From assembly GCA_031835245.2 (NCBI GenBank), contig JAVKOQ020000056.1, forward strand, positions 124,001 to 188,000: DNA of 64,000 nt. The letters are read 5' to 3'. The position numbers were made by a program, and so were the translations under genes. The DNA comes from Balamuthia mandrillaris. Taxonomy: Eukaryota. Shown here in pieces: positions 2,063-64,000 of this stretch; position 1 is the stretch's first letter, and each line of letters begins with the position of its first letter. The notes beneath the pieces were generated by a model. It did not search any database and had not been told where the DNA came from. It worked only from the letters and a program-made list of their open reading frames with translations.

Positions 2063-4384
<2,322 letters not shown>

Positions 4385-35501: not shown

Positions 35502-38296
<2,795 letters not shown>

Positions 38297-38804
38297 TACT
38301 CGCTTACCGGCAGCTGCGTTCTTGTGCCGCAGCAGCAGAAATTATGGCCAACCAACCAACCAATCAACCTATTAGTCCGTTCGTGGCCCGACAGCAGGCT
38401 TGTGCTTCTGTGTTTGCTGCCAGTAGGCGTGCGTGCAGGCCGCTGCCTCCCCTCCGCCTTTGCCAACGACATGTCGTCGGAGAGATTGCCCCGTACGAAC
38501 GTAGAGCGAGCTTCCAAAGGAAGGCTCACGGGATGATTTTTTGCCTCCTCCTGTTCCTGAGCTGAGGGGGAGGAGGAGGTTCCACTGAAGTTACAGAGAA
38601 AAGAGAAAGAAAGAACAAAGGCAAACCACATGAAAAACTGCTTCCTTCACCGGTGGCCTCCTCAACACCACCCCAGTTCGTTTTTTTTTTTTGTTCCTAC
38701 TTTTGAAGGGTGGAGGGGGAAGAGGAAGACCACGACGACCAAGAAAGAGTGAATAAGCAGAAGACCACGAAGCATAGAGGAAAGAGCTCCCTTTAAGAAA
38801 AACA

Positions 38805-39918: not shown

Positions 39919-41269
39919 CTAAGCCTGGCTCCTTTCTTTTAGGTGGTATGGCAGATCGTCCTTTTCGTTATTCGCTTTGTTCTTGTTATAGCGTGGTTTC
40001 CTCTCTAGTTCTTCATTGATCTCCTCTTCATCGTTTCTGTATGCGTGTTCATCATCTTCACTTCCATTACCTTCGTCTTCATCATCAAAGTCTGTGTCCT
40101 CATTGTCATCGTCATTGTTATACCGTTCTTCGCGCTCAGGAAGAGAAGGATAAGAAGCTTCCACCAATACTTTAAGTTCTTCCCTCTTGAGAGGCCGCCA
40201 CTTTCCTTCTGGTAAATCTCCTAGTTGTATGGGGCCAATAGATTCTCTCTTGATGGACAACGGAACGCCATTCCCAATTGCTGCCATCATTCTTCTAACT
40301 TGATGATATCTTCCTTCGTAAAGCGTAATCCTGTTACGTTGTTGGTTGTGCTTTCTTTAGAGAAAAAGAAATGAAGAAAGAGCAGAAGAGAACAAGAAAA
40401 TAACCTTGCCATCTTCTGCTCCTGATCCACCACCTCGAACTTGGCAGGCCTACAAGGATAGATTTCTCCTCGCAGCTTTAGAGTACCAGAAGCAAATAGC
40501 TCCGGTTCTTTGCCAGACAGTGGATTGCGGCTTTGTACCAGATACACTTTCGGCAGTTTCTGCTTTCCTCTGCGCGAAGGAGACGCTATCTGGTGTTGTA
40601 ATTGCCCTTTTGGAGAGGCCCAGCAAGTGAAGTCAATGAGTGCACAAGCAGGTTCAGATACAAAGAATATGAATGCGTTGAATTCAGAAAAGCTGGCGAA
40701 CCATACCATCTTGGGTTAGGAGCACAAGTCCCGTCACCCATTTGTCCAGCCGCCCACATATGGAGAGTAACGGCCGCCGTTTTATATAATCTTCCTGTGG
40801 TGCACCACAGAGAAAGGGTAAGCTCTCCGCGTGAAGAAACACGTTAAGATGGTGTGAGTGGTGGCCTTACCGGTAAAAAATCGTAGACGGTTCGGTGCTC
40901 TCCTTTCGCACGAGTGCAGACCACGCCTTTTGGTTTGTGGAACATCAGGTGAAGGCTGCGGATAGCGACACGTCAGTGAGCAACAATAAATAAAAGCAAA
41001 AAAAGGAACATAAAAGAACTAACGGCTCGTTGGAACGTATGGCCTCCCCATTGATGGTGACCTGAGAGGGCAAGGCTTTGGCGTGCAGCGACAACACGCG
41101 CTCTCCCTCCACCAAAACTTGGTTTTTCTTTATGAAAGACTGCCGGCGGGCAACGGTTAGCAGACAAAGACTAAAGGAGGAGGACACAAAAATGGACATA
41201 TACCAAAGCGCCACCGCGAGTGCAATAGCCAAGGTTGCTCAGCAGTCGGTCCACGCGTTGCGGCCTCAT
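39919..41269 (-). CDS. RsuA-family pseudouridine synthase with S4 domain, multi-exon (start may lie further upstream)
   Basis: RVDRLLSNLGYCTR, MFHKPKGVVCT, GRLDKWVTGL, PKVYLV, LYEGRYHQVRRMMAAIG, RESIGPIQLGDLPEGKWRPL. Confidence 0.88.
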
Positions 41270-41351
41270 GTGCGTTGGGCGGCGGACTGGTCTTTCCCGT
41301 CGACGTTCTTTTTCCACTGCGACAGGTGTCTCTCTCCTCTCTTTCTGTCTG

Positions 41352-41410
<59 letters not shown>

Positions 41411-41505
41411 AGTATATTTTAGGCTTTGGGAGGGGTTTGACGTCAGCAGAATTGAAAAAGGATAGAAAGGGAAATTACAAAAAAAAACGGGAGGCAGGAG
41501 ATGAG

Positions 41506-42411
41506 ATGCAGCCAAGCCGGCGTGTGGCCATTGCAAGTACCACCAGCCATTTGGAACGCGCCAATGCAGGGTTCGCCCAAAGACGAGCGGCAGAGATTAA
41601 CCAAGGTGGAGAGCAGAACCCAAAGAAGAAGGAACAGAAACAGGGTGGGCCACAAGCAATAGTGGCTCTGGAGCGGCAGCTGGAGGAAGCAGAGAAGGCA
41701 TCCCGCTCACTGGCTCTGTCTTTGGAAGAGGAGCAAGCGCGCGCCAATAAGCTGCAAAAGGAGTGTGAGAAACTAGAGGCGGCACACAAAGCAGCAACTT
41801 CAATGCTGGAACTCACCAAGAGCCAATTAAACACGTGCGAGGCACTCAATCCATCCGGTGAGATCGGCGAGTGTCACGAGATCGTTAGTAAGATAGCTGC
41901 CTCTGGTTCCGAGGTAGAAAGGCAAAAATTCTTGACCTTGTACCAAGCGGTTTCCAAGGCAGATAAACTTCAGAGCGAGAAGAAGATGCTTGAGACTGAG
42001 AAGAAGTTGATCGAGAGCGAGAACCGGACACTAAAGTATGCTCTTGGTAAGGTGTATTGCCGCTGTCTCCTCGAGATGTTTTGTAACGACTTCATTAAGT
42101 TGCACGAGGAAAACAAGCATCCTGATTGCCTGTGGCCGCATGACGAGGAAATACGTCCCAACGGTCTGCCGTATGTCACCACTGCTGACCATATCGCAGC
42201 ACCATGCTTTAATCTCCAAACCATTGGGTTTTCAACTGAATTCAGCGGCCTGGCTGACTTGTGGAAAAAGTTGTCACGGATGGTCCACCACTTCAGTGGA
42301 GGAACAGTATTCATCCCTGCTGGCGCTCTGTTGGACACCGAGCAGAAGCTTGTGTGTCAATTGGCCAAGTATCTTAAACTGGACACAGAGATCATCCCAG
42401 AGACTCCATGA
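41506..42411 (+). CDS. Hypothetical intronless coiled-coil protein with C-terminal globular region
   Basis: ~301-aa ORF from ATG 41506 with a heptad-rich middle. Last gene before the TE block. Confidence 0.6.
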   Translation: MQPSRRVAIASTTSHLERANAGFAQRRAAEINQGGEQNPKKKEQKQGGPQAIVALERQLEEAEKASRSLALSLEEEQARANKLQKECEKLEAAHKAATSMLELTKSQLNTCEALNPSGEIGECHEIVSKIAASGSEVERQKFLTLYQAVSKADKLQSEKKMLETEKKLIESENRTLKYALGKVYCRCLLEMFCNDFIKLHEENKHPDCLWPHDEEIRPNGLPYVTTADHIAAPCFNLQTIGFSTEFSGLADLWKKLSRMVHHFSGGTVFIPAGALLDTEQKLVCQLAKYLKLDTEIIPETP

Positions 42412-42490: not shown

Positions 42491-43090
42491 TAGTAGTAGT
42501 AGTAATAAGAAGTTTATTTGCTCTAAGAGCAACACCAATCTTAACAGGAAGTGTTCTCCTTTTTCTTCCTCAGCATTGCATGCTGGGCACTTCTGTCCTC
42601 TTCAGACTGCTGAATGGCTCCCCACTTTTTTCCAATGGGCAGTCCACTACGACAAATAGCATTCATCAATCATTCTTTCCTTGGGTTGGTAATCACTAAG
42701 CTCCGTTGTTGTCCAACTAAACATTTTCCATTTGTCAGGAAGTTATGCCATAGTCATGCTGTTGTTCCTCTTTCTCCTTCAGCTGCAAACTCCACCTTGG
42801 CTACTCGAGTTCTCATCCTCTTGGCTTTCTTTTCAACATCACTTGTCCCTTCACTTCTCTCACCTTCTTTCTTCTCACCTTCCTCTTTCCTTGCTTGGCT
42901 TATCTCTTCAAGTACTACTATAGCTCAAAGTGGCCATCTTGCTTCTCAGCATGGCGAATTACTGCTTGCCTTTCCAACTCACAGTAGGCCTTGATGGTCA
43001 ACCAGCCCAATTCTGCTCTACAAACCCCCTAACTTGCAATACACTTGCTGTCTCATTTCACACAGCTTTGATCTTCTTCTACCTAAAAGT
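42491..43090 (-). mobile_element. Degenerate non-LTR retrotransposon (LINE) 3' fragment with internal deletion
   Basis: The minus strand encodes KCPACNAEEEKGEHFLL (C-terminal CCHC knuckle) and RAELGWLTI, joined to the shared 3' tail GTTGCTCTTAGAGCAAATAAACTTCTTATTACTACTA. Confidence 0.75.
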
Positions 43091-43664: not shown

Positions 43665-44105
43665 CAAGGACAATGGAGATGAAGAACAAGTCAGAAAACG
43701 AATTATAGAAGACTGTACAACAAAGCTCCTGTCAAGTGGAAAGAAATGCAACAGAGCTCAAGAGATGGAGCATTGTAAGCAAAGTTGTAAACAAGTCTGG
43801 AAATTATGGGCAGCAAGAGCAAGTTAGAAGTATGGAAGTTCTTCTGCATTTTATCAATCTTTGGAAGTAATGTAAAAGTAAGGAAATGATAAAAGAGGAA
43901 AAGGGGAAGGAAAGGATAGCTAGATGATACAAAGTTAGTCTGAAAGCTCATTCAACACCTTTCACTTGTAAACTAACATAACAATTGGGAAGGCATTGAG
44001 GATGAGGGAGTAAGAAAAGTAAAAGTACACTATGTATGTATAATGCTTACTTTTTTGTATAGGTTGGTGTTGCTCTCAGAGCAAATAAACTTCTTATTAC
44101 TACTA
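43665..44105 (+). mobile_element. LINE 3' fragment (same family)
   Basis: Near-identical, in inverted orientation, to 54275-54705. Ends in GAGCAAATAAACTTCTTATTACTACTA. Confidence 0.8.
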
Positions 44106-44634
44106 TTCTCTTTGTAGTAGCTTTGGGAAAAACTACCAAAAACTGCCATTTTATGTAGTGGTTTTGCAGCTTTCTCAGTTTGACAACTTCGTTTGACCAA
44201 GTGTGCTAGTAGAGCAAAAAGTACTTAAGTCAGTCCTGCTCCAGATTCCTATAATCAACAATCATACACAGAGGTAGTCAGATCAGCTTCACAAGGGACC
44301 AGATTACTATAGTAAGGAATTCCCCTTCAACAGTAACTAACACAATACAAACAAAAAGGAGAATCTCCTTTTGCTGTTCACTTGGAATATATGGCAAAAA
44401 AAAATATTTTTCAGGTCTTAAAAAAAATATTTTTCTTAAAAATTAATTTTTAGTTAAAAAAATAATATTTTTCCGTTAACAAAAATAATAAAAAAAATGT
44501 TTTTTAATTTCAAAAATATTTTTTATGGTTTGAAAACATTTTTTAAGTTCTAAAAATTATTTTTTTATAAAGCATTATTAAAAGACATTTAATATAAAAA
44601 ATCTACTATTAAACATTAAACAAAATACAAAGAT

Positions 44635-46133
44635 TTATGAATGCTGTTTTTCAAATCTATCTAATTCTGTATAAATTTGAGCTTTGTAAGCAAAAGATAA
44701 TTTGTGATCTGAGGTTAATGCTAAAGGACCCCAAATAAAAGATGCTTAATGTATGTTTTGTGTTTCCTTTTGTAAAAAATAATGTTGACCTCGTTTTGTA
44801 TACCATGATACAGTAGCTTTACGAGGTGTTGTGGAATGAACAAATGCAAGCCAAAAGTCCTCTGAAGAACCATCTTTTGGACAAATAGCATAAATGTGAT
44901 TGGCTAAAATATGGAAAGGTATGCAAGTAGCACAACCAGATGTTGTGACTTGAGATGAAAATTCGATTGAAGAGGAGGAAGCAGCTGAAGTCAAAGAAGT
45001 GGATGCAGAGAATGAAGGAGTATGTTGTCGATTTAAAGTAGTCATAGGTTGAAACAAAGTAAAACAAGGATTATCCAAAGGGAATGAAGGGTGTTGTAAA
45101 TTATAAATCAATGCTTATTCATGAAGTTTGGAAGAAAGCAAGATAGTGGAAAAAGTAGATTGAGTACCTCGAATGCATTCTTCTTCTACACAAGATTTGG
45201 GTATCAAATGAGGAATATGAGTGGAATATAACAATAGATTTGGAAATCCTTTTACCAATGAAATGGGTTTGCTCCAAGGAGCATAAATGTTGGATTTCAC
45301 TTGTAAAATGGGCCATGTTGGACGGCAGGTCATTGTAGGAGTGGGATAAATAAATTTGAAAAATAGAGGTTGGGAATGACCTTCAAGATTTACCATGAAA
45401 GGATGCAACCAACCTTTGAAATCCCAGACCCATTCCAAAGGATGTAATTCTGGATGAGTTTCATCTGTTAAATAAGAAGAGTTAATGAATGTAAAGAATT
45501 GCTCCAAGGTTTCAATATCAAATTTGAGTAATGCTTTATGAAAGGTGGAAAACATTTGATCCACATCTTCATGAGTATGTCCAGGTGGCAAAAAGAACAG
45601 TTTGATCTTGGAAAACATCTTGAGATGCACCAACCAACATAAAAAGGCCAATAAATACTTGTTTTTGTTTTCTTTGTAGCAGTTGTCAGCTTGAAGGTAG
45701 AAGGTTTAGTTGGGATGGGCTCGAAAGGGTTGTTGTAATGTTTGCATAAGAAAGTAAAATAAATGACTGATTACTAAATTGGCATTTCATGACCACTGAT
45801 CAAAATGATAACACAGATAACAATGATGATGCCCATGATCTATTAGTCCGAAACAAGAGACACCGATAAACTTTTTGATGGTCCAGCCTTTTGGGGGAGT
45901 ATGATGATGGGGAAGAGGAATGGCCTCTGTATAATCCATAATGATGGAAATGTATTTGAAAGGAGAGGCTTTGGCTTTAGCATGATGCTTGTAATACTTC
46001 TCTTTGTGTAAACAAACAAAGTGCAAATGATCACTTCGTTCCTTTTGTAAGCCTTGCAATGCCTCCACACTCTTGCATTGTTTAAAACGAACTAGAAGCT
46101 GAGCACATTGATTACATTTTCCTAATCTGGTTT
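44635..46133 (-). pseudogene. Sola-like (DUF7869-type motif) DDD transposase, main exon, with in-frame stops
   Basis: A single frame reads GKCNQC...DHL...YISIIMD...FYLQADNCYKENKNKY...FLPPGHTHEDVDQMFS...WDFKGWL...FWLAFV...VSWY, with four internal TGA/TAA stops and no frameshift. Confidence 0.8.
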
Positions 46134-46183
46134 AACACAGTACAAACAAAAAGGAGAATCTCCTTTTGGAAATTTGAAAGGGT

Positions 46184-48982
46184 TGTAACGGTGATCACGT
46201 CACCTTGTGTTTATTTGTAAGAGGGGATATGTGTGTAACAGTGTAAGTCTCTCTCTCTGTGTGTGAGCATCGTTGCTCACCTTTATATCTTTCTCTTCTG
46301 TTGAGGGTTCTAAGTGATTCTCTCTTGTTTCTCCATGTCGTCATATTCCGTTGTCAATGGTTGGTCACTGCTTGACTCTGATGCAGCTGACTCTATTCTT
46401 GCAGACTTATGTGACGTGTCTGTCAACACCATCACATGCCCTCCCTTAAGGCATGTGTTCATCCTCGAACACTCTTCAACTGCTAACTCCATGACCAAAT
46501 TCTTAGCTTCCTTGCCTTGCTCGATGGGCTCTGCACTCTTCTTCTCGTCATTCTTGTCACAATTGGGCTCTGCACTTGTTTCTTTCTTCCTTCTGTCGTA
46601 TTGATTGGGCTCCACGCTTATCTTCTCTCCTGGGTTGTTGTCTAATTCCATCCTTATCATCTCACTCTCGTCCGTTCTCGTTTTTCCAGTGTTGTTTTGT
46701 TCGGGATCTTCCGTTGTGATGTCTTGTCTGCTCTTGCCGTCATTTTCCACCTGTTTTCAGTTCTCTGCGTCTTCTGGATACATTAAAATGCAACAAAAAT
46801 CCTCATTCCTCTGCAGTCGTGGTCCATCTTTTCTTTTTCAGCTGCTTTTCTCATCCATGCTTTCTCCTCTCCTCCTTCTCTCTCAAGGTGCTTCTTCCAT
46901 ATTCATCTGTGTTGACCTTCAATCATTCTCTAGTTCACAGTTGTGGGTACTAACATCTCTTTTCTTCCCCTCTCTGCCGTCTAAGAGAGCTCGTCCTCAA
47001 GCTTTCTTTCCTTCAAAGCGTCTCCGACATCAAAACGGCCTCCTACCTAAGCCAACAAAGCTCCAAGGAATCCGCCCAGAGTAGAACTTGTATGGATTCG
47101 TATACAGCTTCTTCATGTTTCTCTTGAGTTGTTGTCGATTACTCCACAACGTCAGTCATCTCCCAACACGCCGGAAAGGCGGACCACTGGCTCCGCACCA
47201 GTGTATTGCTGGGCACCTGTGTCCCTCACTTGGCTGCTCTGCAGCTGTGCGTACAACTGGTCCAGGTGTGGCAAGTCCTTTCTCATCGTCCTATCCCACG
47301 TCGAAACTAACACGTAGGGACTCAGCAATGTCACTTTTTCGCATCGCTATACTGCTTGACTCAGTCTCATCTAGGTCGCTGGTGGCATTATCACCATTCC
47401 GGTCCTCCATGTCATCGCGGTCAATAGTTATGTCCTCGTTGATTGACTCCTCTCTGCTGGCATTCCTTAGCAGGGGTGGCGACCCTGAAGGTTGCTGCAT
47501 TAGCGGCTGTGGCTCCTCTAATGGCTGCGACTCCTCTTGTTGCTGCTGCTCATCACCAGTAGGCTGCGGTAGTAGCGCTGTCAACTCCTGCCTTAACTGA
47601 CGGGTGGCCTGCATCAGGGCTTGCATTTCCGCAAAGAGTTCCTTGAAGTCTGCGTAGCTGCTATGTTGCACCGGCAGCTTCTTCTCTGGCTGCAGGGTCC
47701 ATTCCCACGTTGGTTGCAGGGGGAATGGTGCAGAGGAATGTCCTTTCGAAGAATGTGGTGTAGAACGCTGTAGTGGCTTCCTGCATGATGGCTGCTGTTG
47801 CGGGACAAGCTGCGATGATGAGTGCCGTGGTGGCGCTGTTTGCTCAAGGCCGAACTGTTGGGGACAGCGCTTCGGCAGGGCTTGCCTCTGCAGGGTAGTC
47901 TCCTCGGGGTAATACTCTAGCAAAGAGGGCTGTGATGAGGCAGTCCGTCATGTATCATGCTGTGGCCTTGAACACCGAGAATGGCTCTTGGTCGACAACT
48001 GAGGCAGATGGTGACTCTGCTCCAATGCGATTGGTTTGTATGCTGAGCGAGGTTCTCATGAAGGGCCTGCAAGCACAGTAGTGTGGTAGTCATCCTTGGA
48101 GAGGTAGTTTAGGGGATAGTCGCTATAAGCGTCCTCACAGCGGCATCTCCTAAGCTCGTAGCCCGGTGCGTCATCGCTGTAAGCGTCCTCACAGCAGCGG
48201 CGTTCATAACCGTTGTCTGGGACACCGTTGTTGTAAGCGTCTCCACAGTGGTGGCATCCCTACCCTTCAAACCAGCACTCATCCTCGAGGGCCTCCTCTG
48301 GCGTGGGCTGCTGAGGCACATCGTAGAGGGCCACATTGCAAGCGCTTCTGCGTTCCCTTCATAGCTTCTGCTTCCTTGGCTGCACGGCTGAGACTGGCGA
48401 TGCATCCGAGGAGTGGTAGCTACAGCGTCCATTGAAGTCGTAGATGTCATACATGATAGCAAAAAAAATATCAAACAAAATGGGTTATGATGATAAAGCC
48501 AAAACCACTCGAATCAAATCAAAGGCTAGCCGGTGAGGCGTAGCTGTACAAAATCAAATCAAAAATCAAACGGCCACATCACACAAGACTGAATCCCAAA
48601 CAAAAAAAAACACCACACAATCTGCTAAGCCACTTGCACAGACGAAGCAGGGCGAACGGAAGATTGGAAAACAACACTCTGATGGTTCAGTCACCCAAGT
48701 ATTAGGATGACTACTCCGATGTCGCCACTTGTAACGGTGATCGCGTCACCTTGTGCTTATTTGTAAGAGGGGATATGTGTGTAACAGTGTAAGTCTCTCT
48801 CTCTGTGTGTGAGCATCGTTGCTCACCTTTATATCTTTCTCTTCTGTTGAGGGTTCTAAGTGATTCTCTCTTGTTTCTCCATGTCGTCATATTCCGTTGT
48901 CGATGGTTGGTCACTGCTTGACTCCGATGCAGCTGACTCTATTCTTGTAGACTTATGTGACGTGTTTGTTGACACCATCACA
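46184..48982 (-). mobile_element. Non-autonomous LTR retroelement (no recognisable pol)
   Basis: 253-bp TG...CA direct repeats at 46184-46436 and 48730-48982, TSD GGGT. On the minus strand, a PBS-like TGGCGACATCGG follows the 5' LTR and a polypurine AAGGGAGGG precedes the 3' LTR. Confidence 0.92.
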
Positions 48983-49239
48983 GGGTAAAAAATATTTTTT
49001 TAAATCATTTTCCAAAATCAAAAATAATTTTTTTTCTGAAATTTATTATTTTATGAAAATTAAAAATAATTTTTTATATCAAAAATAATGTTTTTTTATT
49101 ATATAACAAAAAAATAATATTTTTTTCACTTTTGTCAAAAAAAAATTAATTATCACTGTGTGGATACATCTCTATATAAAAGATGTAACTTCTCATTTGA
49201 GAATAAAAGTATAATTTTTTCTAATCAAAAAATATCAAA

Positions 49240-52200
49240 AAATTACACTTCAACTCTCTCATATAGCGCGCTCCTTGGCTTACTGCTAAGGTCACTTCGC
49301 TATTTGTTGTGTTTTTGGTGCTTGTTTCAAGCCCTTCCTTACTCAGAACTTATCTGAGACACGTGTGCTGTGGACTCAGCTACTCCAGTGGCAAAGAAGA
49401 GGATAAAAAACGTTTCGATGACTTATGCCATCAGAAGAGCAAACTGATGGAGATGATCAATTAACTGACCGCGATTTGCAAAGAAGAAAACGAGCCACTG
49501 TTCCAACTGCACTCGAATCTGCCTTTGCAACTTCCGGTTAACACTCTGTCAACTCCTTATGTTTCTCCCAAGGGTGTTACCTCTGCAGGTGCTGCTGTGC
49601 CAAAGGTGGTGAAACCTCTGCCTGCTGTGTTCTCCTCCAAGCATTTCTCGCTTTGCTCTGCCACGGAAACTTCTGAGGCTGGCTCCTTGTCTGAGAGTGG
49701 TTACGCTGAACCCTCAGCACTGGGCCATCCAGAACCTTCATCACCCGAAATGGCCTTGGGATAGGCTCATAGCCACCTTCCACGACCACTTTGGCAGCAG
49801 AAACCTGCAGAACGTGCTGCATACAGAGTTCTGTCACTTCTCCTTCAAAACCAGAGAGTAGTGGCAGTGTGCACGCAGCGAGCAGCAGGAGCCATGTGGG
49901 ATATGTTGGGACAAGTGAAGGTCAATGTGTTGGGATCGAACAAGTAGAGATCATTCAAGAATTCTCAGAGCATCGCCTTGGAACACGAATCCGCCTTGGA
50001 AGCCCAAAGCAAGAGAAAGCCCTCGAGACTTTTCCCTCCGAGCAGCTTGAACCACAACAAGGGGACCAAGAACAGCAAACCTTGGTACTCTTTTCACTGT
50101 ACGCACAGTCATTCGGACAAGGACTGCCGAGTCCTCTCCAAGAAAAAGAGTGATGGATCCTCCTCCTCTTCCTCTTCTTCTACACCTGCTACCTCTTCTG
50201 GTGCTCCTCAAAGACCAGCTGGCGTCTGCTACAAGTGCGGTAAGGCGGGACATATGGCAAATCATTGTCCTACTCATGGCACTTCTGCTAAGCCTCCAGC
50301 TTCTTTGCTTAACAGCATGCAGTCCCCTGTGACTGGTGTTTCTCTGGCTCCTCCTTCTGGCAGTGCAGCCTTCCCTTCTCCTTTTCCGGCTACTCCTTCT
50401 TTAAACAACATAGAAGAGAATCCCTTTCAGGAGTTTGAGCAAGCTGCAGCAGAGCTGTTCATGCTTGGTCTTGACGATCATGAAGCTCCTGCCTTCGATA
50501 ACCCCTCTCCTGCTCCTGTTGCTGCTCCTATTATGGTTCCGGCAACCTTGAACAAGCAAAGAGTTAGCAGGGTGAACACCAGCACCTCCTCTTCCTTTGT
50601 GGATCCTTCCCTTGTGGAACAGTTTCACCTCAAAACGACCCACACTCAACAGGATGTGGTTCTGGGAGATGATTCCTCTGCCTCTGTGTCTGCCGTTGCC
50701 TCCCACATTCGTGTGGCGTGTGGTACTCGGAAGTTCTTCCACAACTTCCTCATTCTCAAGCTCTCTGGTTCTACTCAAGTGATCTTTGGCCAAGACATCC
50801 TTGATAGGATAGGCATTGGTCTGTTTGGAATTCCGGTCCGCTTCCCTGGCCCTAAGCCTTCAGCACCAGACAATAAGAACATTGCTTCTTCTGATAAGTA
50901 CGTAGAGTCTCCTTTGCCTCCAGAACTTCAAAAGGCCATTGTAGACCGCATCAAGGACCTTCTTGAAGAGAACAGCGTATTCCTCAAGGTCCTTCCTGTC
51001 CGCTTCCAGAAGGGACAATCCGTTTGGATACCAGAGATCACCCTCTGATATTCAAACATCAGTATCCTATACCAGAAGTCTGGCATTCCTCCATCAATGA
51101 GCAGCTCGAAGAGTGGTACCGCCACAAGGTTATTGTGGATGCTCCCATGGACTCGCCATGGAATTCGACCATTCTTTGCGTCCCTAAGAAGGATGCTAAT
51201 GGCAATTGGACTTCAGCCTGTACCTGCATTGATCCATGAGCTATCAACTCTATCATTGTGGATATCCACTTCCATATTCCTAGTATCCTTGCTGTCATAG
51301 AGTACATCCTTGGCTTCCATATCACCAGCTCACTAGATTTAGTGTGGAGCTTCATGCAGCTTCTAATCTTTGTGCCTCACCAGATCAAGCTCACCTTCAC
51401 CTGGTGAGGGCGCTGCTACTGCTTTCGTGGAGCTCCCTTTGGGGTGAAGATCGTTCCGGCCACTATGCAGCGTCTCCTTGCCCCTGTGCTTAAGGACCTC
51501 GCTGACTGCACCGCACACTATATTGATGATTGCCTCAACCAAGCGAAGCTTTCCAATGTGCTCATCAATAGAGGCAGAGCGGGAAAAGATGTGCGACCCT
51601 TTTGGAACAAGAACTGCGATGAAGCTATCAGTGCCCTTCACCGTATCCTCAGCTCTCCTCTGGTTCTGAGCAAGCCGGACCCCAGTCTTCCGTTCCTTGT
51701 TGGTACCGATGCTTCCCAATATGGCGTTGGTGCTGTGCTCTATCAAGAGTCTGCTGATGGTATTCGCCGTTATCTTGCCTTTGCTAGCCGTGTCCTCAAC
51801 TCTGCTCAACGCAACTATCCTGCCACGAAATGTGAGCTTCTTGCTGTGGTCTTTGCCCTCCACCAGTTCCGCTGTTGGCTGTGGGGTCGCCGCTTTACCT
51901 TGTTCACAGACCACAAGGCCTTGTCGTATCTCTTTACGGCCAAGCATTCTTCTTTCATGCTTAATCATTGGGCTTTCTTGCTGCTCCAGTTTGACTTCAA
52001 CATCATCCACCAGCCTGGTGTTCAGATGGTCTTGGAAGATGCGCTTTCCCACCTCTACCAGCCCAACTTTTGGGAGGAAGATGGTCTGGCTCCACCAGTA
52101 GTTCCAAACGAAGTCAAAACCTTGGCTCTGGTAAAGAGGCAACGCAACATTCCAAGAGTTCCTTCCTTGTCCATGCTTGACGTCTCTCAGCACCCTCCAG

Positions 52201-53863
52201 TTGCTCCGTCAAGAGAACTCATCTGTTACATCAAGCTGTTTTTGGACAAAAAGGCCCCTTCTTTCATGGAAGAACAACAGGAGTTACTCTCCCGCCTCCA
52301 TCTCGCTGGCCATGAAGGTGCTGCCAATCTCTTCAACAAGGTCTGGAACGAAGGTTTCTTCTGGCCTTCCCTTCAGGCTGATTGCTTCGCTACTACCCAT
52401 TCGTGTGATGCCTGCCTTTGTTTCAACATTGCCAGGCATGGTTTTCATCCTCTGAAAACCATCTCCACCACTTTTCCCTTCAAACACATTGCCTTGGACC
52501 TGTTTGGCCTGCTCGCCACCGATGAATCTGGTTTCTGTTATGTTTTGGTGGTCACCAACATTGCCACCAGGTTTACCCTTCTCCGCCCTTTGGTTAACAG
52601 GACAGTGGCTGCTACCACCAGTGCCTTCTATGGGGTCATATGCAATTTTGGCTTTCCCAAGATTGTACAGTCAGACAACGGCTCTGAGTTTGTCAATGAG
52701 ACCATGGCTACTATCAAGGCTATCTCTGGCTTCGACCACAGATTTATTGCTGCCTATCACCCGCGAGCCAATGGTGCTGCTGAGGCCCATGTCAAGCTTG
52801 CCAAGTCCGCCCTAATGAAGCTGGTCTCTTCCGATTGGAGTCACTGGTCCACCTTCCTTCCAGCTGCCCAATTTGCGATCAATCAAAGGCTGACCTCCAG
52901 GCATAAATTGACTCCCTTTAAGCTCTTTCTTGGACGCCCTGTCAACCTTCCGAGTGATTTTTCCAACGTGGAATCCAATCCCCTTCCTGAGGCTGACCGC
53001 CTTGCACAAATTGCCAAGTTGCATTCTGTTGTCTGGCCTGCTGCTTTTGATGCTACTGACCTCTACAACCAGATTGTGTCTGTGACGCATGACTCTTCTG
53101 TTTCCTTATTTGAATTCAAGCCAGGTGACACTGTTATGCTTCGTCATTCTGCTGCCACCTCCAAGATGGATCCGAAGTATCTCGGCCCCTTCTCTGTCAA
53201 ACGCAGAACCAAGAGTGGTGCATATATACTAGTGGATGTTACTGGCAACGAGTTGAAAGATCGTATTCCTCCTTCTCTTCTTAAGCTAGTTCCCCCTCTC
53301 CCTTCTGGTTCCTTGATACTCCTATCCTCTACTCCAGTTCTTCCTGATAAGACCGATTTGGAATCTCAAGCCGACCCTGATGCTTCTGATGATGTTAATT
53401 CCAAGTCTGATGATGATAACAATGATGATTACTCCAAGTCCTACGAAGTTAGCAAGGTGCTAGACCACTGTGGACCTGCCAACCGCCGAGAATACAAGGT
53501 CAGATGGAAAGGCTACTCTCCTAAGTACGACCTCTGGATTCCAGTCAAGAACTTTGATGATCTTCGACCTGTCAATACCTACTGGAAGAAGCTTTGTTTG
53601 AAAAGGGGGTGATGTTGGAAAACTCCAACATAATAGCCCTTCTTCTCTTCCTGTCGACCTCTCCCTCATGCCTGTCAACCTGAGGAAACCTCTTGGTGTC
53701 CAACTTCTCCTTTCTTGAACTTCTCCTTTCTTGTTGTTTTCTGTCTCTGCCCTTTTATGCTGATATTCTCTGTTCTTCTTTTTTGGATAATTGTTCTAGC
53801 TTAAATACTGCCTCTCCTTGCTTCTTCTTCTTCTTCTTTTTCCTCTCAGGACAACTTACAACA
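49240..53863 (+). mobile_element. Ty3/Gypsy chromodomain-bearing LTR retrotransposon, degenerate, 5' LTR not seen
   Basis: Gag knuckle CYKCGKAGHMANHC, eroded protease, RT (SPWNS, HYIDD, partly deleted), RNase H (TDASQYGVGAVL), integrase (H..H..C..C, SDNGSEF, NGAAE), chromodomain YEVSKVLDH...YKVRWKGY. PPT AAAAGGGGG, then putative LTR TGTT...AACA ~53614-53863. Confidence 0.92.
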
Positions 53864-54274
53864 AAACACAAGATACTTTACTATCACTTGTACTCTTCAC
53901 TTTTAGTAAATTAAGTTCAAGTCTCATACTTACTTTATCTCCACCATCATTCCTGTTCTTATTTTTTATGACAATTTATCCATCAAATTATTGTACTTAT
54001 TTATTGTAATATATGTAATGAGCTGCGCCATACAGCGCAGCTCTGTTTGTTTTTTCAATATTTTATTTTTTTTCCAAAAAATTTATTTTTGTTTATTAAA
54101 CAAGAAAATCAAAAATATATGATAAAATTGGTGAAGAAACTATTCAATGATACCAATTTGATAACTAAAGGAAAAGAACTTTATTTGAGTGAAGAAAAGA
54201 GAGAAGAGAGAATGGGAAAGGTATATGGAAGAGTGGTATAACAAATAAATTATTTCAATATCAAAAAGTGTTTA

Positions 54275-54808
54275 GTAATAAAAGTTTATTTGCTCTGAGA
54301 GCAACACCAATCTATACATAAAAAGTAAGCCTTGTACATACATAGTGTACTCTTACTTTTCTTACTCCCTCATCCTCAATGCCTTCCCAATTGTTACTCA
54401 ATTCACAAGTGAAAGGTGTTGAATGAGATTTCAGACCAACTTTGTATCATCTAGCTATCCTTTTCTTTCCCTTTCCTTTCTTCTCTTTTCCTTGCTTACA
54501 TTACTTCCAAAGACTGATAAAATGCAGAAGAACTTCCATGCTTCCAACTTGCTCTTGCTGCCCATAATCTCCAGACTCGTTTACAACTTTGCTTACATTG
54601 TTCCATCTCTTGAGCTCTGTTACATTTCTTTCCACTTGACAGGAGCTTTGTTGTACAGTCTTCTATAATCAGCTTTCTGACTTGTTCTTCACTTCCATTG
54701 TCCACACTCCAGATTCTAAAGCGATCTTCCCAAAGGTTAGGACACCTTAACAGGAAGTGTTCTGCTGTTTCTTCCTCAGCATCACAAGCAGGGCACTTGC
54801 TATCCTCC
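54275..54808 (-). mobile_element. 5'-truncated LINE insertion with 14-bp TSD
   Basis: TCAAAAAGTGTTTA at 54261-54274 and 54809-54822. Encodes KCPACDAEEETAEHFLLRCP...VWRLWAAR and carries the shared 3' tail. Confidence 0.88.
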
Positions 54809-55317
54809 TCAAAAAGTGTTTATATTCATAATTTATTTTCAATATAAATATTTAAAAAAATAAAAGAATATATTGTAAATATAGTTATTTTTGTGTTTAT
54901 TATTTTTTTTTTGAAGGAAAAAATAATTTTGGAAATAAGAAAACCTTTTTTTTATTCTTTTTATAAAATGAAAAATAATATTTTTGTGATAGAAAAATAA
55001 TTTTTTTAAGGCCCCAAAAATAATTTTTTTTGCCATATAATCCAAGTGTGAAGCAAAAGGAGATTCTCCTTTTTGTTTGTACTGTGTTGTTTGCTAATAC
55101 AGAAAGCTTGTATAAGAGGGTATTGGCTGTGCTGTATGACCCAAGATCTGCCCTTCACAATGAAGGTTGCTAAATTCTTTGTTGAAAGGAAAGGGCACTT
55201 TTGCATCGTATGACGCACTCAACACTCTTGCTTGCTAGAAAAATTTGAAAAAATTTGCTTTTCATTGGATAGGAAGGATAGCCAATGCCTTTTATACAAT
55301 AGTAGAGAGAGCTGAAG

Positions 55318-56208
55318 AGGACTGATTTGCACTGCACAGCCTAGCCAATGCCAGCCATACAAAAGAAAAGAGAGCAGAAAAGGGCTAATCTGTGCTGTAT
55401 GGTGCAGCTCATGCCTGCCATACAAAAGAAAAAATTGTGGAAAAAGGCTGATCTGCACCGTACAGTGCAGCCCATGCCCCTCATACAAAAGAAAAGAGAG
55501 TGGGAAAGGGCTGATTTGCACCATATAGTGCAGCCAATGCCTGTGAAACAAAAGAAAAAATTGAGGAAAAGGGCTGATCTGCACTGTACAGCACAGCTCA
55601 TGCCTGCCATACAAAAGAAAAAATTGTGAAAAAAGGCTGATCTGCGCCATATGGCGCAGCCTATTCCTGCCATACAAAAGAAAAAATTGTGGAAAAAGGC
55701 TAATCTGCACCATATGGCGCAGCCCATGCTTGTCATACAAAAGAAAAGAGAGCGGAAAAGGGCTGATCTGCGCCGTATGGTGCAGCCCATGCCTGTCATA
55801 TAAAAGAAAAGAGAGCAGAAAAGGGCTGATCTGTGCTGCACAGTGTAGCCAATGCTAGCCATACAAAAGAAAAGAGAGCAGAAAAGGGCTGATCTGCGCC
55901 ATACAGCACAGCCCATTCCTGCCATACAAAAGAAAAGAGAGCAGAAAAAGGCTGATCTGCGCCATACGGTGCAGCTCATGCCTGCCATACAAAAGAAAAG
56001 AGAGCAGAAGAGGGCTGATCTGCACTGCACAGCGTAGCCAATGCCAGCCATACAAAAGAAAAGAGAGCAGAAAAGGGCTGATTTGTGCCATACGGTGCAG
56101 CTCATGCCTGCCATACAAAAGGGTTGATCTGCACTGTACAGTTGATGCCAGCCATACAAAAGAAAAGAGAGTGAGAAAGGGCTGATCTGCGCCGTACAGT
56201 GCAGCCAA
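55318..56208. repeat. Tandem array of ~15 units, 63-bp period, each with an 18-bp palindrome and an A-rich tract
   Basis: Unit consensus GGGCTGATCTGCGCCGTACGGCGCAGCCCATGCCTGCCATACAAAAGAAAAGAGAGCAGAAAA. Unit starts at 55384, 55447, 55510, 55573 ... 56077. Confidence 0.93.
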
Positions 56209-56690
56209 CGCACTAGTCTCAAAATTTGAATGCAAGCAAAAAAACAAAAGAAAAAGGGATAATGGCATAGCAATGCTGGTCTCTCTTTCAAACAAAATGC
56301 AGGTTGAACAGATTTGACAACTGAGAACAATACAAACCGTTATGCCTCACAGTCCTTTCACAAGTTGAACTCAAAAGAAAGAATTATGAGGTTGGATGTA
56401 AGAAAGCACATTCAAGCCCCTTTATTATGGGAACAAAAAGCTTTCAAATTTCCTTTAACTTGCTGTCACTTCTTCCAGCACCATATCAGCAATGCTCTCT
56501 GTCATTGGTTGTCCTCCACAAAGTCTGCAGCAAATCACAGCGATTTGACTACCAATTAAACGAAATTCAAAAGAAAAAAAAGAGGGCCAAAAGCAAAACA
56601 AACTCCCAAAATTTTAGTTTGTCACAAAAGTGCACAACCATTCACACTGTTCACACATATTCCTTGCTTTTTATTTTTGCTGTTGTGGTT

Positions 56691-59600
56691 ATGTCGGACA
56701 ACAAGAGATTGACAGTGAAAGAACTGCGGCAAAGGATCGAGGACCTCAGTGGACAATGGATCACCAAGGACTCCAAATCTGTCTTATCGCACAAATTGCA
56801 AGTGCTACAAACTCCTACGTCAAATCCTTCTTCCAACCAACCATTGGACCTCTCGGAAACAGATGAAGGCTCATCTTCCTCCCCGTCCAACAGGTAAAAC
56901 AACTTCAAGCTATCACTATGAAAGGTTTGTGCTTGTATTTTTGTGTTATAGTCAATGACTGAACGGCCACTATTCGCTTTGCTTCTTTCTTCCTCAAGAG
57001 AGAAGGGCCAGTCCAGCTCCATCCTACTTTTGCCCTTTCTCTTCTCTCATCCAAATTATTATTTGAAGGGATGGTGTTGACTGCACTGTACAGCACAGAT
57101 CAGCCCTTCAGCTCATTTGCTGCACCAAACGGCACAGTTCAGCCCTTCAAATCCTCTAGTACTTTAGAAGGGAAATCATTGGCTGCACCATATGACGCAG
57201 CTTAGCCCTTCAAACCTCTGGTATTTTTGAAGGGTGTTGGCTGCGCCATATGGCACAGATCTGCCTGAAAGATCAACACTTTCCTTTTATAGTTTGGGTG
57301 ATGATTGCGCCATATGGCACAGATCACAACTGCTGCCTTAATTTCTTGTTTGGCTGGCAAGAAAAGGTTATAGGCTGCACCGTATGACGCAGCTCATGCC
57401 TTTGGCCTTTTTCTCTCTTGTTGACTAGTTGAAGGGCATTGGCTGTGCCATATGACGCAGCGGATACCCTCCACAGTTTTTCTTTTAACTTTGTACTGTC
57501 ATTAACTTCTTATGTTTTATCAGGTTGGCATTGACCTCAGACCAGAAGGGTTGAATAAGCTGCTGGCCACATTCAACTCAGGTGGCATTTTGTCTTTTGA
57601 TGAACACTCTTCTTTATTATTGATGGAAATGCCCTCAGCTCTGTGGGTGCATCCAGAAAGCAATCAACAAGAATATGTATATCTTGGAGGTAACCATCAA
57701 TGTGCAGCAGCCCATGTATTGTACTGTGAAAACTCTCCAAAGCTGAAGGAGTTAACTTGGAGGGCCAAAGTGCTGCCATTTAATGGCAAACAACTTCCAA
57801 GTGTGGCTGTCTTGGACAAGGTACAATACCTTGGAGTTTTATGTTGTTTTTTCTGTTTTTTAACACGGTGACTTACTCATATTTCTTGGAAGTTGTCTGC
57901 CTGGGACAACCTGGTGTTGTCCGAAGGAGTCAATCAAGAGACAGAATGGGATATGGTCTGTTTTGTGTACAATCATCTCACAAAAACACCAGAGGAGCTG
58001 TTACATTATCTGGTAGGATGGTCCTTCTTTGGTTGCAGGCAAGCTCTGAAATGATTGCTCATTTTCTCTTTTTTGTGTTGGAGAGGAGGGGGTTTTGTAT
58101 TTTAGAATTCACAAACTGCCTCCCAAGATGCCCATAATGCTCTCACCTTTGATCATGTTCAATGTTTGAAAACAGTGGCAAACAAAATGCAGAAATTCCC
58201 AGAGTCTTGGAGTTATATTCAGGAGAAGGACAAAGAAAAGGGGGGCTGGGTGTTTACTCCTTATCACTTGAGAGAGAAAATGCCAAGCTCCTTATCAGAT
58301 GAAACCTTGTTGGCAGCCTTGAAAGAGATATGGGCAAGGCACCTTGAGGATCCCAAGGAAGAATGTTCTGTAACCATCATGAGATGGTTTTGGTGAAGGA
58401 GGTGGAGAGGATTGAGGTGTAGTGGTGTTTGAGTGGAATGGAGGAGAAGCTGGTTCATCAGAGGGTATGTATTGCTACCAGCAAGGAATGAATAAATGAA
58501 TGAAAGATAGCTATTGAAAGGAAAAAAAAAAGAAAAGCAAAAAACAACAACCAAAGACCTCTTCCAAACACCAGGCCAAAAAAGCAAAAAACCATCATCG
58601 TGGCAGACCCAAACTCAACACTCCTCCTCAACCCTCCAAACAATTGGCCCACCAACTCAACAAATGGGGAAAGGATGTGCTTGCTTCTCATTCCCCTCCT
58701 ACCAAGTTCAAAGTGAACATTTATGATAATTTACCAACACATGCTCCCTTGATGCTTGATTCCTTGGGAGTACACTGCCAAAGTAAGTCTTTTTTGGGTT
58801 ATTTTTTCCAAAGAACTCAGATTGCTGTCTGTCTAATTTTCTCTCATTCTTCCCAGACCATTATGTGGAAAGGGTTTTGTTGATAACTACCCATTATAAT
58901 CACTTGCACTTGGCCATGAATCAAATCAATGCCAAAAAACAAAAGCAACATCAGCTTTTGATTAACTTGAAGCTAGAAACAGTTCTTGTTTTTGGGTACA
59001 AACCTCACCATTCCAAGCATAACAACAAACCACAATGGTGTGAGAATGGCATGTTTGTGGCAGTGTGGAACAAAGGCCAAACATAGTTGCAGGATGATTC
59101 TAGTTCGATTACTTCTTCTCTTGTTGGCCTTGGAGACATGGCAACCAACTTCAGTGGTGATTCCAATCAAGGGACCTCAAGCTCAGGAAGGACAAGTGGC
59201 TGATCAGGCGAATCTCTCTTCTTCTCCTGTTCCTCCTTTAAATGTGTATCATTATTTGCTGAACACATTCACAGAGCCTAAAGATGTGGTGTTGGCCTTT
59301 AATTCCACAACAGGTTGTTTGCCTGCAGTTTGTTTGGAAAGTAAGTTCATCCTTTTGTTTTTCCTTTCCTTGTTTCTTTTGGTAATGAACTAAAACATTT
59401 ATAAATGTTAGCAATGCGTCATTTTGTGGCCTTGTTTCCTGGTTCTAGAGCCACAAACTTAGCAGAGCATGCAAAATTATTAGCAACCACTGTGTTGGAT
59501 AGAAACAAGGTGCAAAAAGGCTTAGTTGCTTGGAAGAAAAAACAAAAAGTTCTGAAAGAAGATTTAGTACCAAAAAATGCAGATGATGAAGATGATGAAG

Positions 59601-59926
59601 TTCCAAAAGATAGTAATCAATCTGAAGAGGAAGATGAAGAACTTCCAAAGCTTACCTCCAAAAACCACAAAAAATCAAAAGCACAACAAAATGAAAAAGA
59701 AAAAAGTAAAGAAGTAGAAGTAGAAGAAGAAGAAGAAAAAGAAGGAGAAGAAAAAGAAGGAGAAGAAGAAGAAGAAAAAGAAAGAGAAGAAGAAGAACAA
59801 GAAGATACAGAAAGTAAAAAGAACAATAATAATAGTGATGAGGATTTTTCAGATTCTGATAGCAACACATCTTCTCAATCAACCAAATCAAAAAAAGATA
59901 AAGGAAAAGACAAATTAGACAAATAA
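56691..59926 (+). pseudogene. Transposon cargo gene: SAP/HeH-like, ParB/Srx-like, degenerate N6/N4 DNA methyltransferase-like, charged tail (multi-exon, disrupted)
   Basis: MSDNKRLTVKELRQRIEDLSGQWITKDSKSVLSHKLQ; YVYLGGNHQCAAAH; PLNVYHYLLNTFTEPKDVVLAFNSTTGCLPAVCLE|TMRHFVAL; E/K-rich tail. GT-AG introns, several stops and frameshifts. Confidence 0.5.
57075..57465. repeat. Seven copies of the same palindrome separated by divergent spacers
   Basis: GCTGCRCCRTAYGRCRCAG-like copies starting ~57081, 57120, 57183, 57241, 57305, 57375 and 57443. Inverted relative to the 63-bp array. Confidence 0.85.
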
Positions 59927-60106
59927 ATTCTGTTTTTGAAATATCAACTTTCAAACAACAATAATAAAAATGTTTTCTTTAATATTTATAAAATACTATG
60001 CTATTCATATAAAAAATAATTTATGATTTTCCTTATTAAAAAAAATTTGAAAAAAAATTATTTTTGATTTTGGAAAAATATTTAAAAAATTATTTTTTGC
60101 CTTTTC

Positions 60107-60600
60107 CTCTGCCACCCATAGCTTTCTTGCCACCACGTCAATATACACATTGAATAAGAAGGGAGACAAAACTCCTCCTTACTTAACTCCTCTTTCTACT
60201 AGGAATTCCTCAGAGAGTTGCCCATTCATGCAAATGACACTTGTCATACCACAGTACCACTCTGCAATGATGCTCACTGCTGCCTCTTCTGCTCCTCTTT
60301 TGCGCAATGTCCTTGCCAGTATGTCATGGTCAAGCATGTCATATGCCTTGCTGATATCCAACAGAGCAATATAAGTATGTTCTTTGCTTCTCTTCATCAG
60401 GCATTTCTTCAACTGCCACACTTAATCCATGACTCCTCTTCCTTTTCTAAATCCGCTCTGGCAATCACTTATCCACCCTTGCTCTCTTGCTTGCATATTC
60501 AACTGCACCAAGATAGCTCCCTCAAACACCTTGGCTGCGTTGCATAAGAGGGTAATTCCTCTATAATTTGCTGGGTTCTGCTATCCCAAATTCTCTTACT
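60107..60600 (-). mobile_element. LINE reverse transcriptase fragment (pseudogene)
   Basis: PANYRGITLL, LLDISKAYD.LDH, ERGVK*GGVLSPLLFNVYID. Confidence 0.88.
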
Positions 60601-60979
60601 CCTTTTTATTTTCCCTTTTTGCTCATAATACACTCAAAGCACACACTTTGGTCCACACCTCTTTTCTTGTGAATTAACCCAAAGGAAAGGTGGGTGAGAG
60701 GATCTTCAAGCTGGGGCTCAAGTACATTGAAGTGTGGAAATTAGGAGAAATGCTTTCGCCTACTGGTGGGTAGGCAAAGCCCAAATTGAACAAGCCAAGA
60801 ATGAAGGCAAACCATTGTAGACGCCTAAAGAGCAAAGAAAGAAGGAGAAGAGAAAGGAAAAGGTAGAGAATATTGGAACAGTGGCTTTGGACAGTTTGTT
60901 GGAATTCTCTGGCATCACCCCGGCTAAGGAAGAGCATCACTGCTGCCAACTGGTCTGACATTGTGGATGAGGAAGGAAA

Positions 60980-61910
60980 GGAGACCCAATGACTTCAGTA
61001 GTGTTTATCAACTCTTGGGGCTGGGGACAACAGGAATTGGTCAGCTATTGGGCTGACAGTAAGCAATTTGACTTTTTTGGAGTGTGTAAACATAAGAAGA
61101 TGGTAGTCCCTCTCTTGGAAAGGGAGAGGTACAGGCTGGTAAATAGGTAGAAGGTCTGCTCCAGGGAGGAGTTGCAATGGAAAGGGTGGCACAAGGTTCT
61201 TTGTTTGAGAGGGCTTCAAGGGGAACATCAAAGAAAAGAAAGAGTCACAAATGCCCAACTTCACTTGGGTGGAACTAGCGAGACAGAGTAGCATCTTTAT
61301 AATCATATCATGTATTTCCCTCTAGGAGGTACTATGGACAACTTTAAAGTCGCCTTGGCTGCGATCAAGAAGAGAATCTGAAACTAGTTAATGAAGACCC
61401 CTGATTATTGGAGGAGATTGGAAAGGGCCTTGAGGTGACTCTATTTAGAACATGATAAGAAAAAAGGCTGGCCCTCTTAGTGCCTCAGCTTGAAGAAGAA
61501 ACGCCAGTGTTTACATGGAAAGCTGGAAAACGAAAGAGCATTGTGGACTATGTGGTAGCATAGAGATGGATGGTCAAGGTAGCTGGTGATTAGTAGTCAA
61601 GTTGAAGGATTCTGCAAAAAATTGCAATGAGTTTTAGATGAAATGATGGAAGTGGAAGTCCTGCTTGAAGGAAGAGGTGGAGAGAGTACAAAAGCAGCTG
61701 CAAGCATTTCTTCAAAGAAGAGGAATGAAAAGCCAGGGTGTGGAAAATGCAGGAGGGAGCAACACCAAGCAGGGCAAGGAAGCCATGGTGAACAGCAAAG
61801 TTAACATCCTTGAACAAGCAAGTGGTGAAAGTCCATGCTCAGTGGCTAAGAGAAGGAAAGAATAATGGAAAGGCCAGAGAGGAATTTGTAGTGCTCAGGA
61901 AAAGGTTTGT
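60980..61910 (+). mobile_element. Probable LINE APE-endonuclease-region remnant
   Basis: Broken frames containing LIIGGDW and SIVDYVV. Purine-rich plus strand. Confidence 0.45.
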
Positions 61911-61959
61911 GAGGCATACTTCCTTGGAGAGTCTCTCCTAGAACTCCTCAAAACAAATT

Positions 61960-63385: not shown

Positions 63386-63435
63386 GGAAGAATCATTTTA
63401 AGCCTTGGTGTGGGAGCTGCTTCAGGTAGAAGAGG

Positions 63436-63606
63436 TAGTAATAGTAATAAGAAGTTTATTTGCTCCAAGAACAACACCAATCTATACATAAAAAGTAAAC
63501 ATTAGTACATACATAGTGTACTCTTACTTTTCTTACTCTTTCATCCTCAATTGTTATAATGGTTCACAAGTGAAAGGTGTTCAATGAGCTTTTAGACTTA
63601 CTTTGT
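63436..63606 (-). mobile_element. LINE 3'-UTR fragment (same family as 54275-54808)
   Basis: Matches 54273-54447, including TAGTAATAAGAAGTTTATTTGCTC..GA.CAACACCAATCTATACAT. Confidence 0.85.
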
Positions 63607-64000
63607 AGGTAGAAGAGTTTGAAGTTGCTGCTTTCTTGAATCCATTCCAAAGATCTTTTTCTTGTCTTCCCTGGAACTTTCCTGAGCCTAGAACTTAAGA
63701 ACCAAGAAACCAAGAAGTTACTCGCTTAGGCTTCTGCCTTTGAAGACAAGCTTGAATTCCTATGGATGTGCATGCTGTGTACTCCATTTAACTACAACCC
63801 CAAAGTGATCTTTCTCTTTTGAACTTTCTTGAAGAGCGACTTTCAGAAAGCAAAAATATATTTAATAAACAGAAAAGACCATTTGTAAGTGTGTTTTTGT
63901 TGCTTGTTGCTTTTCATGTGTTTTTGTTAAAGGGAAGTTATTTGTAGTTGAGAAGGCAACCAAGGAATGAGGCTTGGGATTGAGAGTGATAGTTTCTCCA

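Follow-up and report, generated by a model that had tools for sequence, protein, structure and literature searches.

In the brown alga Ectocarpus, the transposon Sola1-1_Ec32 carries, opposite its transposase, a gene for a 1104-amino-acid (aa) protein that joins a ParB-like domain to an N4/N6 methylase, and the accessible part of the same source (PMC12477816) cites green and red algal cases. A Plavaka (EnSpm) element of Bostrychia encodes the ParB-like protein PAG3 beside tandem inverted-repeat arrays, and self-binding has been proposed for it in the available part of that report (10.1101/2025.02.11.637652). DUF3723 (PF12520) is an auxiliary Starship gene, of unknown function according to the accessible portions of two papers (10.1101/2021.12.13.472469, 10.1101/2025.02.28.640899), and eukaryotic methylases have been traced to phage ParB-methylase-terminase loci, as stated in the accessible part of PMC4738411. 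The transposons of the Balamuthia mandrillaris genome await annotation (10.1101/2025.02.25.640156), and a further paper (10.64898/2026.05.21.726589) mentions neither ParB nor Sola nor Balamuthia. Here we describe a transposon-borne gene, below called the cargo gene, at positions 56691-59926 (plus strand) of a 64,000-nt stretch of Balamuthia mandrillaris DNA (the window).

We read this segment as the decayed accessory gene of a multi-copy Sola-like transposon, whose intact product would have combined a ParB/Srx-like, DUF3723-like N-terminal half with an N6/N4-methyltransferase fold, probably lacking activity, and would have bound the 18-bp palindromes of its own element; taken as a whole, we rate this reading slightly above even. 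The gene structure, the head-to-head position inside the element ends, the recurrent pairing with a transposase, the palindrome arrays, the decay and the loss of methylase motifs are established by observation.

The cargo gene and the transposon that carries it

All peptides that an earlier note on the window had quoted from this gene are present in the sequence, namely LTVKELRQRI..G...SKSVL..KL at 56712-56798, YVYLGGNHQCAAA at 57674-57712 and YLLNTFTEPKDVVLAFNSTTGCLPAVCLE at 59253-59339, the last of which is spliced onto (T)MRHFVAL at 59412. Spliceosomal introns, also proposed there, were confirmed by alignment to sister gene models, which places five GT-AG introns at 56925-57523, 57821-57892, 58013-58105, 58783-58856 and 59341-59411; a sixth donor lies at 56894, and its acceptor was lost in a deletion. 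Balamuthia copies of the cargo are known here as protein models (P numbers) and run contigs, and the nearest homologs of the exon at 57524-57820 are NCBI gene models named Balamuthia mandrillaris with 82-94% identity. The parts of the gene, all on the plus strand, are as follows.

56691-56893, plus strand: exon 1, a predicted pair of helices (putatively HeH-like) with a Ser-rich linker (93% identity to P0008 residues 1-60)
56894-56924, plus strand: junction of a deletion at 56905 that removed about 50 codons together with the end of intron 1, remnant KAITMK (P0001/P0008; loose contig ends at 56905)
56925-57523, plus strand: 599-nt GT-AG intron with a second, inverted palindrome set (6 strict matches at 57082-57459)
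57524-57820, plus strand: exon encoding the ParB/Srx-like core, with GGNHQ at 57686-57700 where the sisters have GGNHR (sister models, alignment to ParB)
57893-58012, plus strand: exon, helical region after the ParB-like core (sister-model alignment)
58106-58376, plus strand: exon, helical (DUF3723-like) region truncated by the deletion at 58376 (sister models, loose contig ends, Atlas)
58557-58782, plus strand: basic linker leading into the first strand of the methyltransferase fold (sister models, Atlas)
58857-59340, plus strand: core of the methyltransferase fold, with TAG at 59084, a frameshift by one extra base near 59121 and the degenerate S-adenosylmethionine (SAM)-binding motif AFN(S/P)TTG at 59295-59315
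59412-59926, plus strand: last exon, RHFVALF strand, helix, long acidic/basic tail and stop (sister models, phage alignment)

Compared with sister models P0008/P0014, 549 of 574 residues are equal and 25 differ, 7 of which are single CpG transitions, including the Arg-to-Gln change in GGNHQ. With the in-frame stop, the frameshift and the deletions of ~50 codons at 56905 and ~80 codons at 58376, the window copy is a pseudogene, which the earlier note had overlooked. An inverted short piece of cargo coding sequence (58427-58474) was observed at the second deletion. Sister copies are annotated as two models each (P0001 with P0009, P0005 with P0014, P0008 with P0015), and the split between these halves is bridged by P0003 and P0004; hence the intact product would probably be a single protein of ~820-870 aa. 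The public names of P0009, P0010, P0011, P0014, P0016, P0020 and P0021, such as 'Digestive organ expansion factor' and 'NMDA receptor-regulated protein 2', are artefacts of low-complexity tails, and matches of exon 1 to tape-measure proteins (expectation value, E, 0.002) were dismissed as helical-repeat noise. No splice joint was seen in the RNA runs, of each of which 3-5% was read.

Positions 1-42400 of the window hold ordinary intron-rich host genes, and 42490-64000 is a nest of transposons. Within this nest an outer element spans 44338 to ~60100, its right end cut by a long interspersed nuclear element (LINE), and its parts follow in the order left end, transposase (minus strand), 63-bp array, cargo gene (plus strand) and right end. 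The cargo gene thus stands head-to-head with a DUF7869 transposase, a domain which we take to be linked to the Sola superfamily, within 35-bp terminal repeats.

44338-44600, plus strand: outer left end, 35-bp terminal repeat (AACAC...) and AT-rich subterminal stretch (self-BLAST)
44746-46131, minus strand: DUF7869 (Sola-like) DDD/E transposase, 3' two thirds, three stops (PF25273 E 2.7e-42; P0020 alignment)
46134-55088: inner copy of the same family, nested in inverted orientation and without genes, AACAC at both ends and GTTT on each side
55280-56210: 63-bp tandem array between the divergent genes, one 18-bp palindrome per unit (TRF 13.4 copies, score 865)
59960-60101, minus strand: right subterminal end of the outer element, terminal repeat lost at the LINE junction (inverted match to 48984-49124)

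The 35-bp repeat starting AACAC was found by self-BLAST at 44338, 46134 and, reversed, 55088 (44338-44373 against 46133-46168, 97%; 44339-44524 against 55088-54918, inverted). There are two kinds of AT-rich subterminal stretch, that at 44339 pairing with 55088 and those at 46134/48983 with 60101. At the right, the reverse transcriptase domain RVT_1 adjoins the outer end, and one contig joins 60106 to the terminal repeat. Residues 1-205 of the transposase have no match in the window, while D275, D310 and GHTH.D are invariant in eight of eight. The inner copy, which contains a long terminal repeat (LTR) element, a Gypsy and a LINE fragment, has 35-bp terminal inverted repeats and GTTT on both sides, and the 4-bp target duplication rests on this one insertion. 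If the termini are AAC..GTT, the flanks are AACT and GTTT/GTTT; with CAC..GTG termini they are CTAA, TTAA and TTGT (44334-44341, 46130-46137, 55085-55092), and a TTAA reading may stand beside GTTT. The loose-end consensus at 55088 starts AA. Amoebozoan Sola2 elements have 4-bp duplications too, as far as the available part of their source goes. The terminal repeat also holds a hairpin, AAAAGGAGAATCTCCTTTT, at 44350-44373.

The element is present in multiple copies. Cargo pieces occur on 12 contigs of differing lengths, and for five of the six transposase models listed a cargo model is found 1-3 accession numbers away on an equally long contig. Contigs of run X1 cover 30 of 30 bins with a summed depth, which is not a copy number, of 184-948 outside the last bin; eight of them diverge from the window at 55088, and three contigs identical to the window have a summed depth of ~32-36. 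The position inside the element ends and the recurrent pairing with a transposase bear out the earlier proposal that the gene is cargo of a eukaryotic DNA transposon. 'Domesticated', as it was called there, is wrong in the usual sense because the gene travels with the element and the window copy is dead.

The two halves of the product

PHROGs, Atlas, phage tblastn and hhalign agree on a beta-class N6/N4-methyltransferase fold in the C-terminal half, in line with the earlier note. Among 38,880 PHROGs families scanned, a methyltransferase matched at E 1.4e-4, and nine of nine Atlas structure rows were N6_N4_Mtase clusters (template-modelling score, TM, 0.57-0.60 over 149-165 residues), two of which are ParB fusions; the Atlas feature score for this half, only 0.84, is a lead. 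Among the phage tblastn matches listed, 13 of 15 fell on the same residues, 283-325, and 12 lay under annotated methylases, at E 0.8-8. The PF01555 hidden Markov model (HMM) gave no match to the cargo models. This half shows a permuted Rossmann fold whose motif I lies close to the C-terminus, and the cargo pattern P.L..YLL.TFT.P.D.VLAFN.TTG...CL...R.F.ALF aligns to the phage pattern KP.AL..YLI.TYT.PGD.VLD..MGSG....C....R.FIGIE.

In this alignment the Asp of motif I, the GSG and the following Glu are lost in the cargo, and in the RHFVALF strand the acidic SAM-binding residue is replaced by F. Motif I reads AFN[PS]T in all six Balamuthia models that cover it, F replaces E after it in five of five, and YDNLP is found in eight of eight, whereas phage relatives have DxPY and DxxxG[SA]G in 52 of 53 and the following acidic residue in 51. 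A [DNS]-P-P-[YFW]-like motif is absent from all frames of the plus strand of the window, as the earlier note had said of DPPY/SPPY; its suspicion of a degenerate SAM-binding motif and a pseudo-enzyme likewise holds for the SAM-binding and catalytic motifs of all models seen. The sequence (I/N)IYDNLP at 58716-58736, placed by eye, is a candidate remnant of the DPPY motif. Since the motifs are lost in every model, the loss is a family trait and not decay of the window copy, and on these residues the methylase domain is likely a pseudo-enzyme. This family-wide loss argues against a 'self-methylation' model for the Balamuthia family.

In the N-terminal half, GGNHR is read in five of the six models with the motif (GGNHRCAAA in four, GGNHRYAAA in one), and Q occurs solely in the window's own model. 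The change sits in CpG context, so the guess that CAA is a CpG-decayed CGA proved right. An Arg motif of the GxxRxxA type follows a beta-strand and is preceded by a 'helix..G' segment. Against 39 bacterial ParB domains, the top alignment follows the helix-G-strand-G..R..A order expected of ParB. By Atlas features this half resembles DUF3723 at 0.94-0.96 (0.96 being 1 in 100 for shuffled proteins), and by Atlas structure seven of eight rows were ParB_N clusters, with TM 0.28-0.37 by query and up to 0.47 by target. The Pfam HMM for PF12520 (DUF3723) did not match, and tblastn against phages and plasmids returned three weak rows, none ParB. Thus, of the proposed ParB/Srx domain, the motif layout and the Atlas look-alikes stand, and the profile-profile test is not significant; ParB/Srx ancestry of this half is, in our view, quite probable.

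Pfam was searched with 21 single exons and open reading frames (ORFs) and with 12 models, which gave zero matches to ParB, SAP or methylase families. The SAP/helix-extension-helix (HeH) assignment of the N-terminus was not upheld, as there is no Pfam match and the score of a Rho_N-type profile was equalled by 135 of 500 shuffles. Two helices are predicted there with low confidence, at residues 9-20 and 26-40 of exon 1 (predicted local distance difference test, pLDDT, ~45-52), and are candidates for an HeH-like pair.

Palindromes, CpG decay and alternative readings

With a pattern that permits CpG-type decay only, the 18-bp palindrome has 19 matches (0.00 expected), all in 54024-57459. The 63-bp array holds 11 of them, the 599-nt intron contains 6, and 2 lie elsewhere, with one near-perfect palindrome at 54024, inside the bounds of the gene-less inner copy. 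The intron palindromes are a second, inverted set, and the two arrays differ in spacer sequence. The ancestral site was probably CTGCGCCGTACGGCGCAG, a perfect palindrome with four CpGs. Over the set of 19 sites, 55 of 76 CpGs are decayed compared with 7 of 190 other positions, and the observed/expected (o/e) CpG ratio is 0.06-0.30 in the element (0.06 over 57524-59926) versus 0.74 in host genes; we therefore infer host CpG methylation of the element. Host CpG methylation of retroelements has been shown in Acanthamoeba, according to the accessible part of PMC12344493. ORFs of 21-aa repeats over the 63-bp array were rejected as genes, as they have no family match and their variation tracks CpG decay.

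In the mechanism we propose, the helical region behind the ParB-like core would read the palindrome, as ParB reads parS, and the cargo protein would coat or clamp the element from the palindrome sites. The dead methylase fold may serve as a second DNA-gripping or protein-binding module that writes no mark. The most likely purpose would be self-recognition of the element, which could keep the divergent promoter region accessible, or guide the transposase to its own element, in a host where CpG methylation silences transposons. Besides the family-wide loss of methylase motifs, the defined 18-bp candidate site is a new detail here, and makes the ParB/parS-like idea testable by binding assay.

Several results weigh against this reading. 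In hhalign, the score to the 39 bacterial ParB domains was 11.2, below the shuffle mean of 12.2 (maximum 18.6), and ParB had no match in Pfam, NCBIfam, PADLOC or PDB sequences; the Atlas TM values for ParB are all below 0.5, and the AlphaFold models are of low confidence (pLDDT 33 and 36), the low-confidence model of pLDDT 36 giving no Foldseek match. On the methylase side, the hhalign score of 34.7 exceeded the maximum of 26.0 in 40 shuffles with a profile that had been chosen from the best match, so this test was not blind, and global alignment did not set YDNLP on DLPY. A HMMER search of 1.84 billion representatives gave seven matches, all Balamuthia, and no outside relative. RNA depth on the cargo gene was 0, <1 and 0 in three runs, in the portion read, one run being discounted as a test. 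Moreover, the palindromes of the window copy are heavily CpG-decayed, so any protection did not last.

Among the alternatives, the one that survives best, though we think it unlikely, has the palindromes bound by the transposase, as with the subterminal repeats of hAT and CACTA elements, or by a host factor, while the accessory protein would have its role elsewhere, such as in target choice or in partnership with the transposase. It would account for the palindrome at 54024 in a copy without genes, and it suits a cargo protein in which no binding domain is confidently identified; however, 2.6-11 kb separate the arrays from the outer ends, they are placed around the start and in an intron of the accessory gene, the AT-rich subterminal stretches contain no palindrome, and such arrays co-occur with ParB-like genes across unrelated transposase superfamilies in the available parts of the sources.

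Less probable again is that the N-terminal half is not related to ParB at all, that GGNHR is a chance look-alike, and that a captured, decaying passenger with a methylase fold lies beside an ordinary minisatellite. The ParB profile test at shuffle level and the lack of a family match are what this would predict, and all models seen are split or broken and the gene is near-silent in RNA; against it stand the feature score of 0.96 and the seven of eight ParB structure rows in Atlas, the presence of a perfect 18-bp palindrome in each of two arrays that differ in their spacers, and the same two-domain gene in a brown-algal Sola element. That the methylase is active through an unusual active site and marks the element against silencing with N4-methylcytosine or N6-methyladenine, for example in the GTAC core of the palindrome, is very improbable: the fold is retained, Asp and Pro persist in YDNLP and the literature presents the algal relatives as predicted N4/N6 methylases, but in all models seen Asp of motif I is Ala, GSG is TTG, the acidic ribose-binding residue is Phe and no aromatic residue follows the Pro.

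Neighbouring sequences and comparison with described systems

The LTR element inside the inner copy (46185-48982, 2.8 kb) has 254-bp LTRs that are 97% alike and GGGT on both sides; its CpG o/e of 0.65 makes it younger than its host element, and its minus-strand gag-like remnant has no Pfam match. A frameshifted Gypsy retrotransposon at ~49250-53900 retains zinc knuckle, reverse transcriptase, RNase H, integrase and a C-terminal chromodomain, and no LTR pair was found for it. Fragments at 42493-42604, 43668-44105, 54273-54820, 60101-61950 and 63435-63607 belong to a single LINE family whose 3' tails are made of TAG/TAC repeats. In two RNA runs, reads begin matching at 60119, hence a relative is transcribed. 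Gene models P0002 and P0004 both include a fusion to the same LINE piece, which may thus have entered the transposon family on more than one occasion. An intronless 416-aa coiled-coil ORF (41161-42408, no Pfam match) borders the nest. Further upstream, 26500-31400 is a large gene on the minus strand that carries numerous Cys-rich CGDG..D.GE.CD repeats, presumably of the DUF4215/myxococcal type, and likely encodes a surface protein, and very long AAC/CAA trinucleotide-type tracts occur at 37386-38303 and 3529-4076. The findings carry nothing on the disease caused by this amoeba.

VANC proteins of VANDAL transposons are also element-encoded accessory proteins that bind short repeated motifs of their own element, and their anti-silencing function has been shown by experiment; their fold is unrelated to that of the Balamuthia cargo. 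Phage fusions of ParB_N and N6_N4_Mtase in the Atlas show the same two folds in the same order as the cargo, and phage beta-class methylases are its best motif matches, but the phage enzymes keep DPPY and FxGxG, have no introns and are only ~20% identical to it. As to the prokaryotic origin assumed in the earlier note, no direct donor was detectable by the HMMER search or by pattern scans (0 of 83 metagenome and 0 of 45 prokaryote-contig candidates).

Like the Starship gene, the cargo is element-borne, and DUF3723 is the best Atlas feature match of its N-terminal half; Starships differ in having a tyrosine recombinase, and no methylase fold is reported with DUF3723 in the portions of that literature available. 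This look-alike connects the cargo to an open question on Starships, and among the accessible papers none was found to contain both DUF3723 and ParB. In the available text on Bostrychia, PAG2/PAG3 resemble our case in a ParB-like accessory with adjacent inverted-repeat arrays and a PF01555 methylase in the cassette, and the ParB assignment there is weak too (HHpred E 0.29). In contrast to the cargo, the two domains are there encoded by separate genes, ParB being fused to a 2-oxoglutarate (2OG) oxygenase and the methylase carrying a fused SET domain, and the transposase is of another superfamily. A wider reading, tentative and in our opinion rather doubtful, is that amoebozoan, algal, fungal and animal DNA transposons have in common a ParB/parS-like self-recognition module of ancient origin, which Starship DUF3723 would represent in fungi; the Balamuthia methylase would then be a dead DNA reader, and a clamp driven by cytidine triphosphate (CTP) on CpG-rich palindromes might shield the element from host methylation or deliver the transposase.

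The closest system is that of Ectocarpus, and the combination of ParB and methylase in a transposon gene is not new, being already described for Sola1-1_Ec32. By the descriptions in the accessible part of PMC12477816, the Ectocarpus element shares with ours the ParB-like and methylase combination beside a Sola-type transposase, and its AAC termini with a 4-bp duplication would match the AAC..GTT reading of the Balamuthia ends. They differ in that the Balamuthia host is amoebozoan, the element is ~7.5 kb without nested inserts versus 21.5 kb, the protein is ~820-870 aa versus 1104 aa, and the methylase motifs are degenerate in Balamuthia; palindrome arrays are unmentioned for Sola1-1_Ec32 in that part of the text. 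No paper on an earlier amoebozoan case was found in a literature search that left subscription journals outside. An element design printed for brown, red and green algae is now extended to Amoebozoa.

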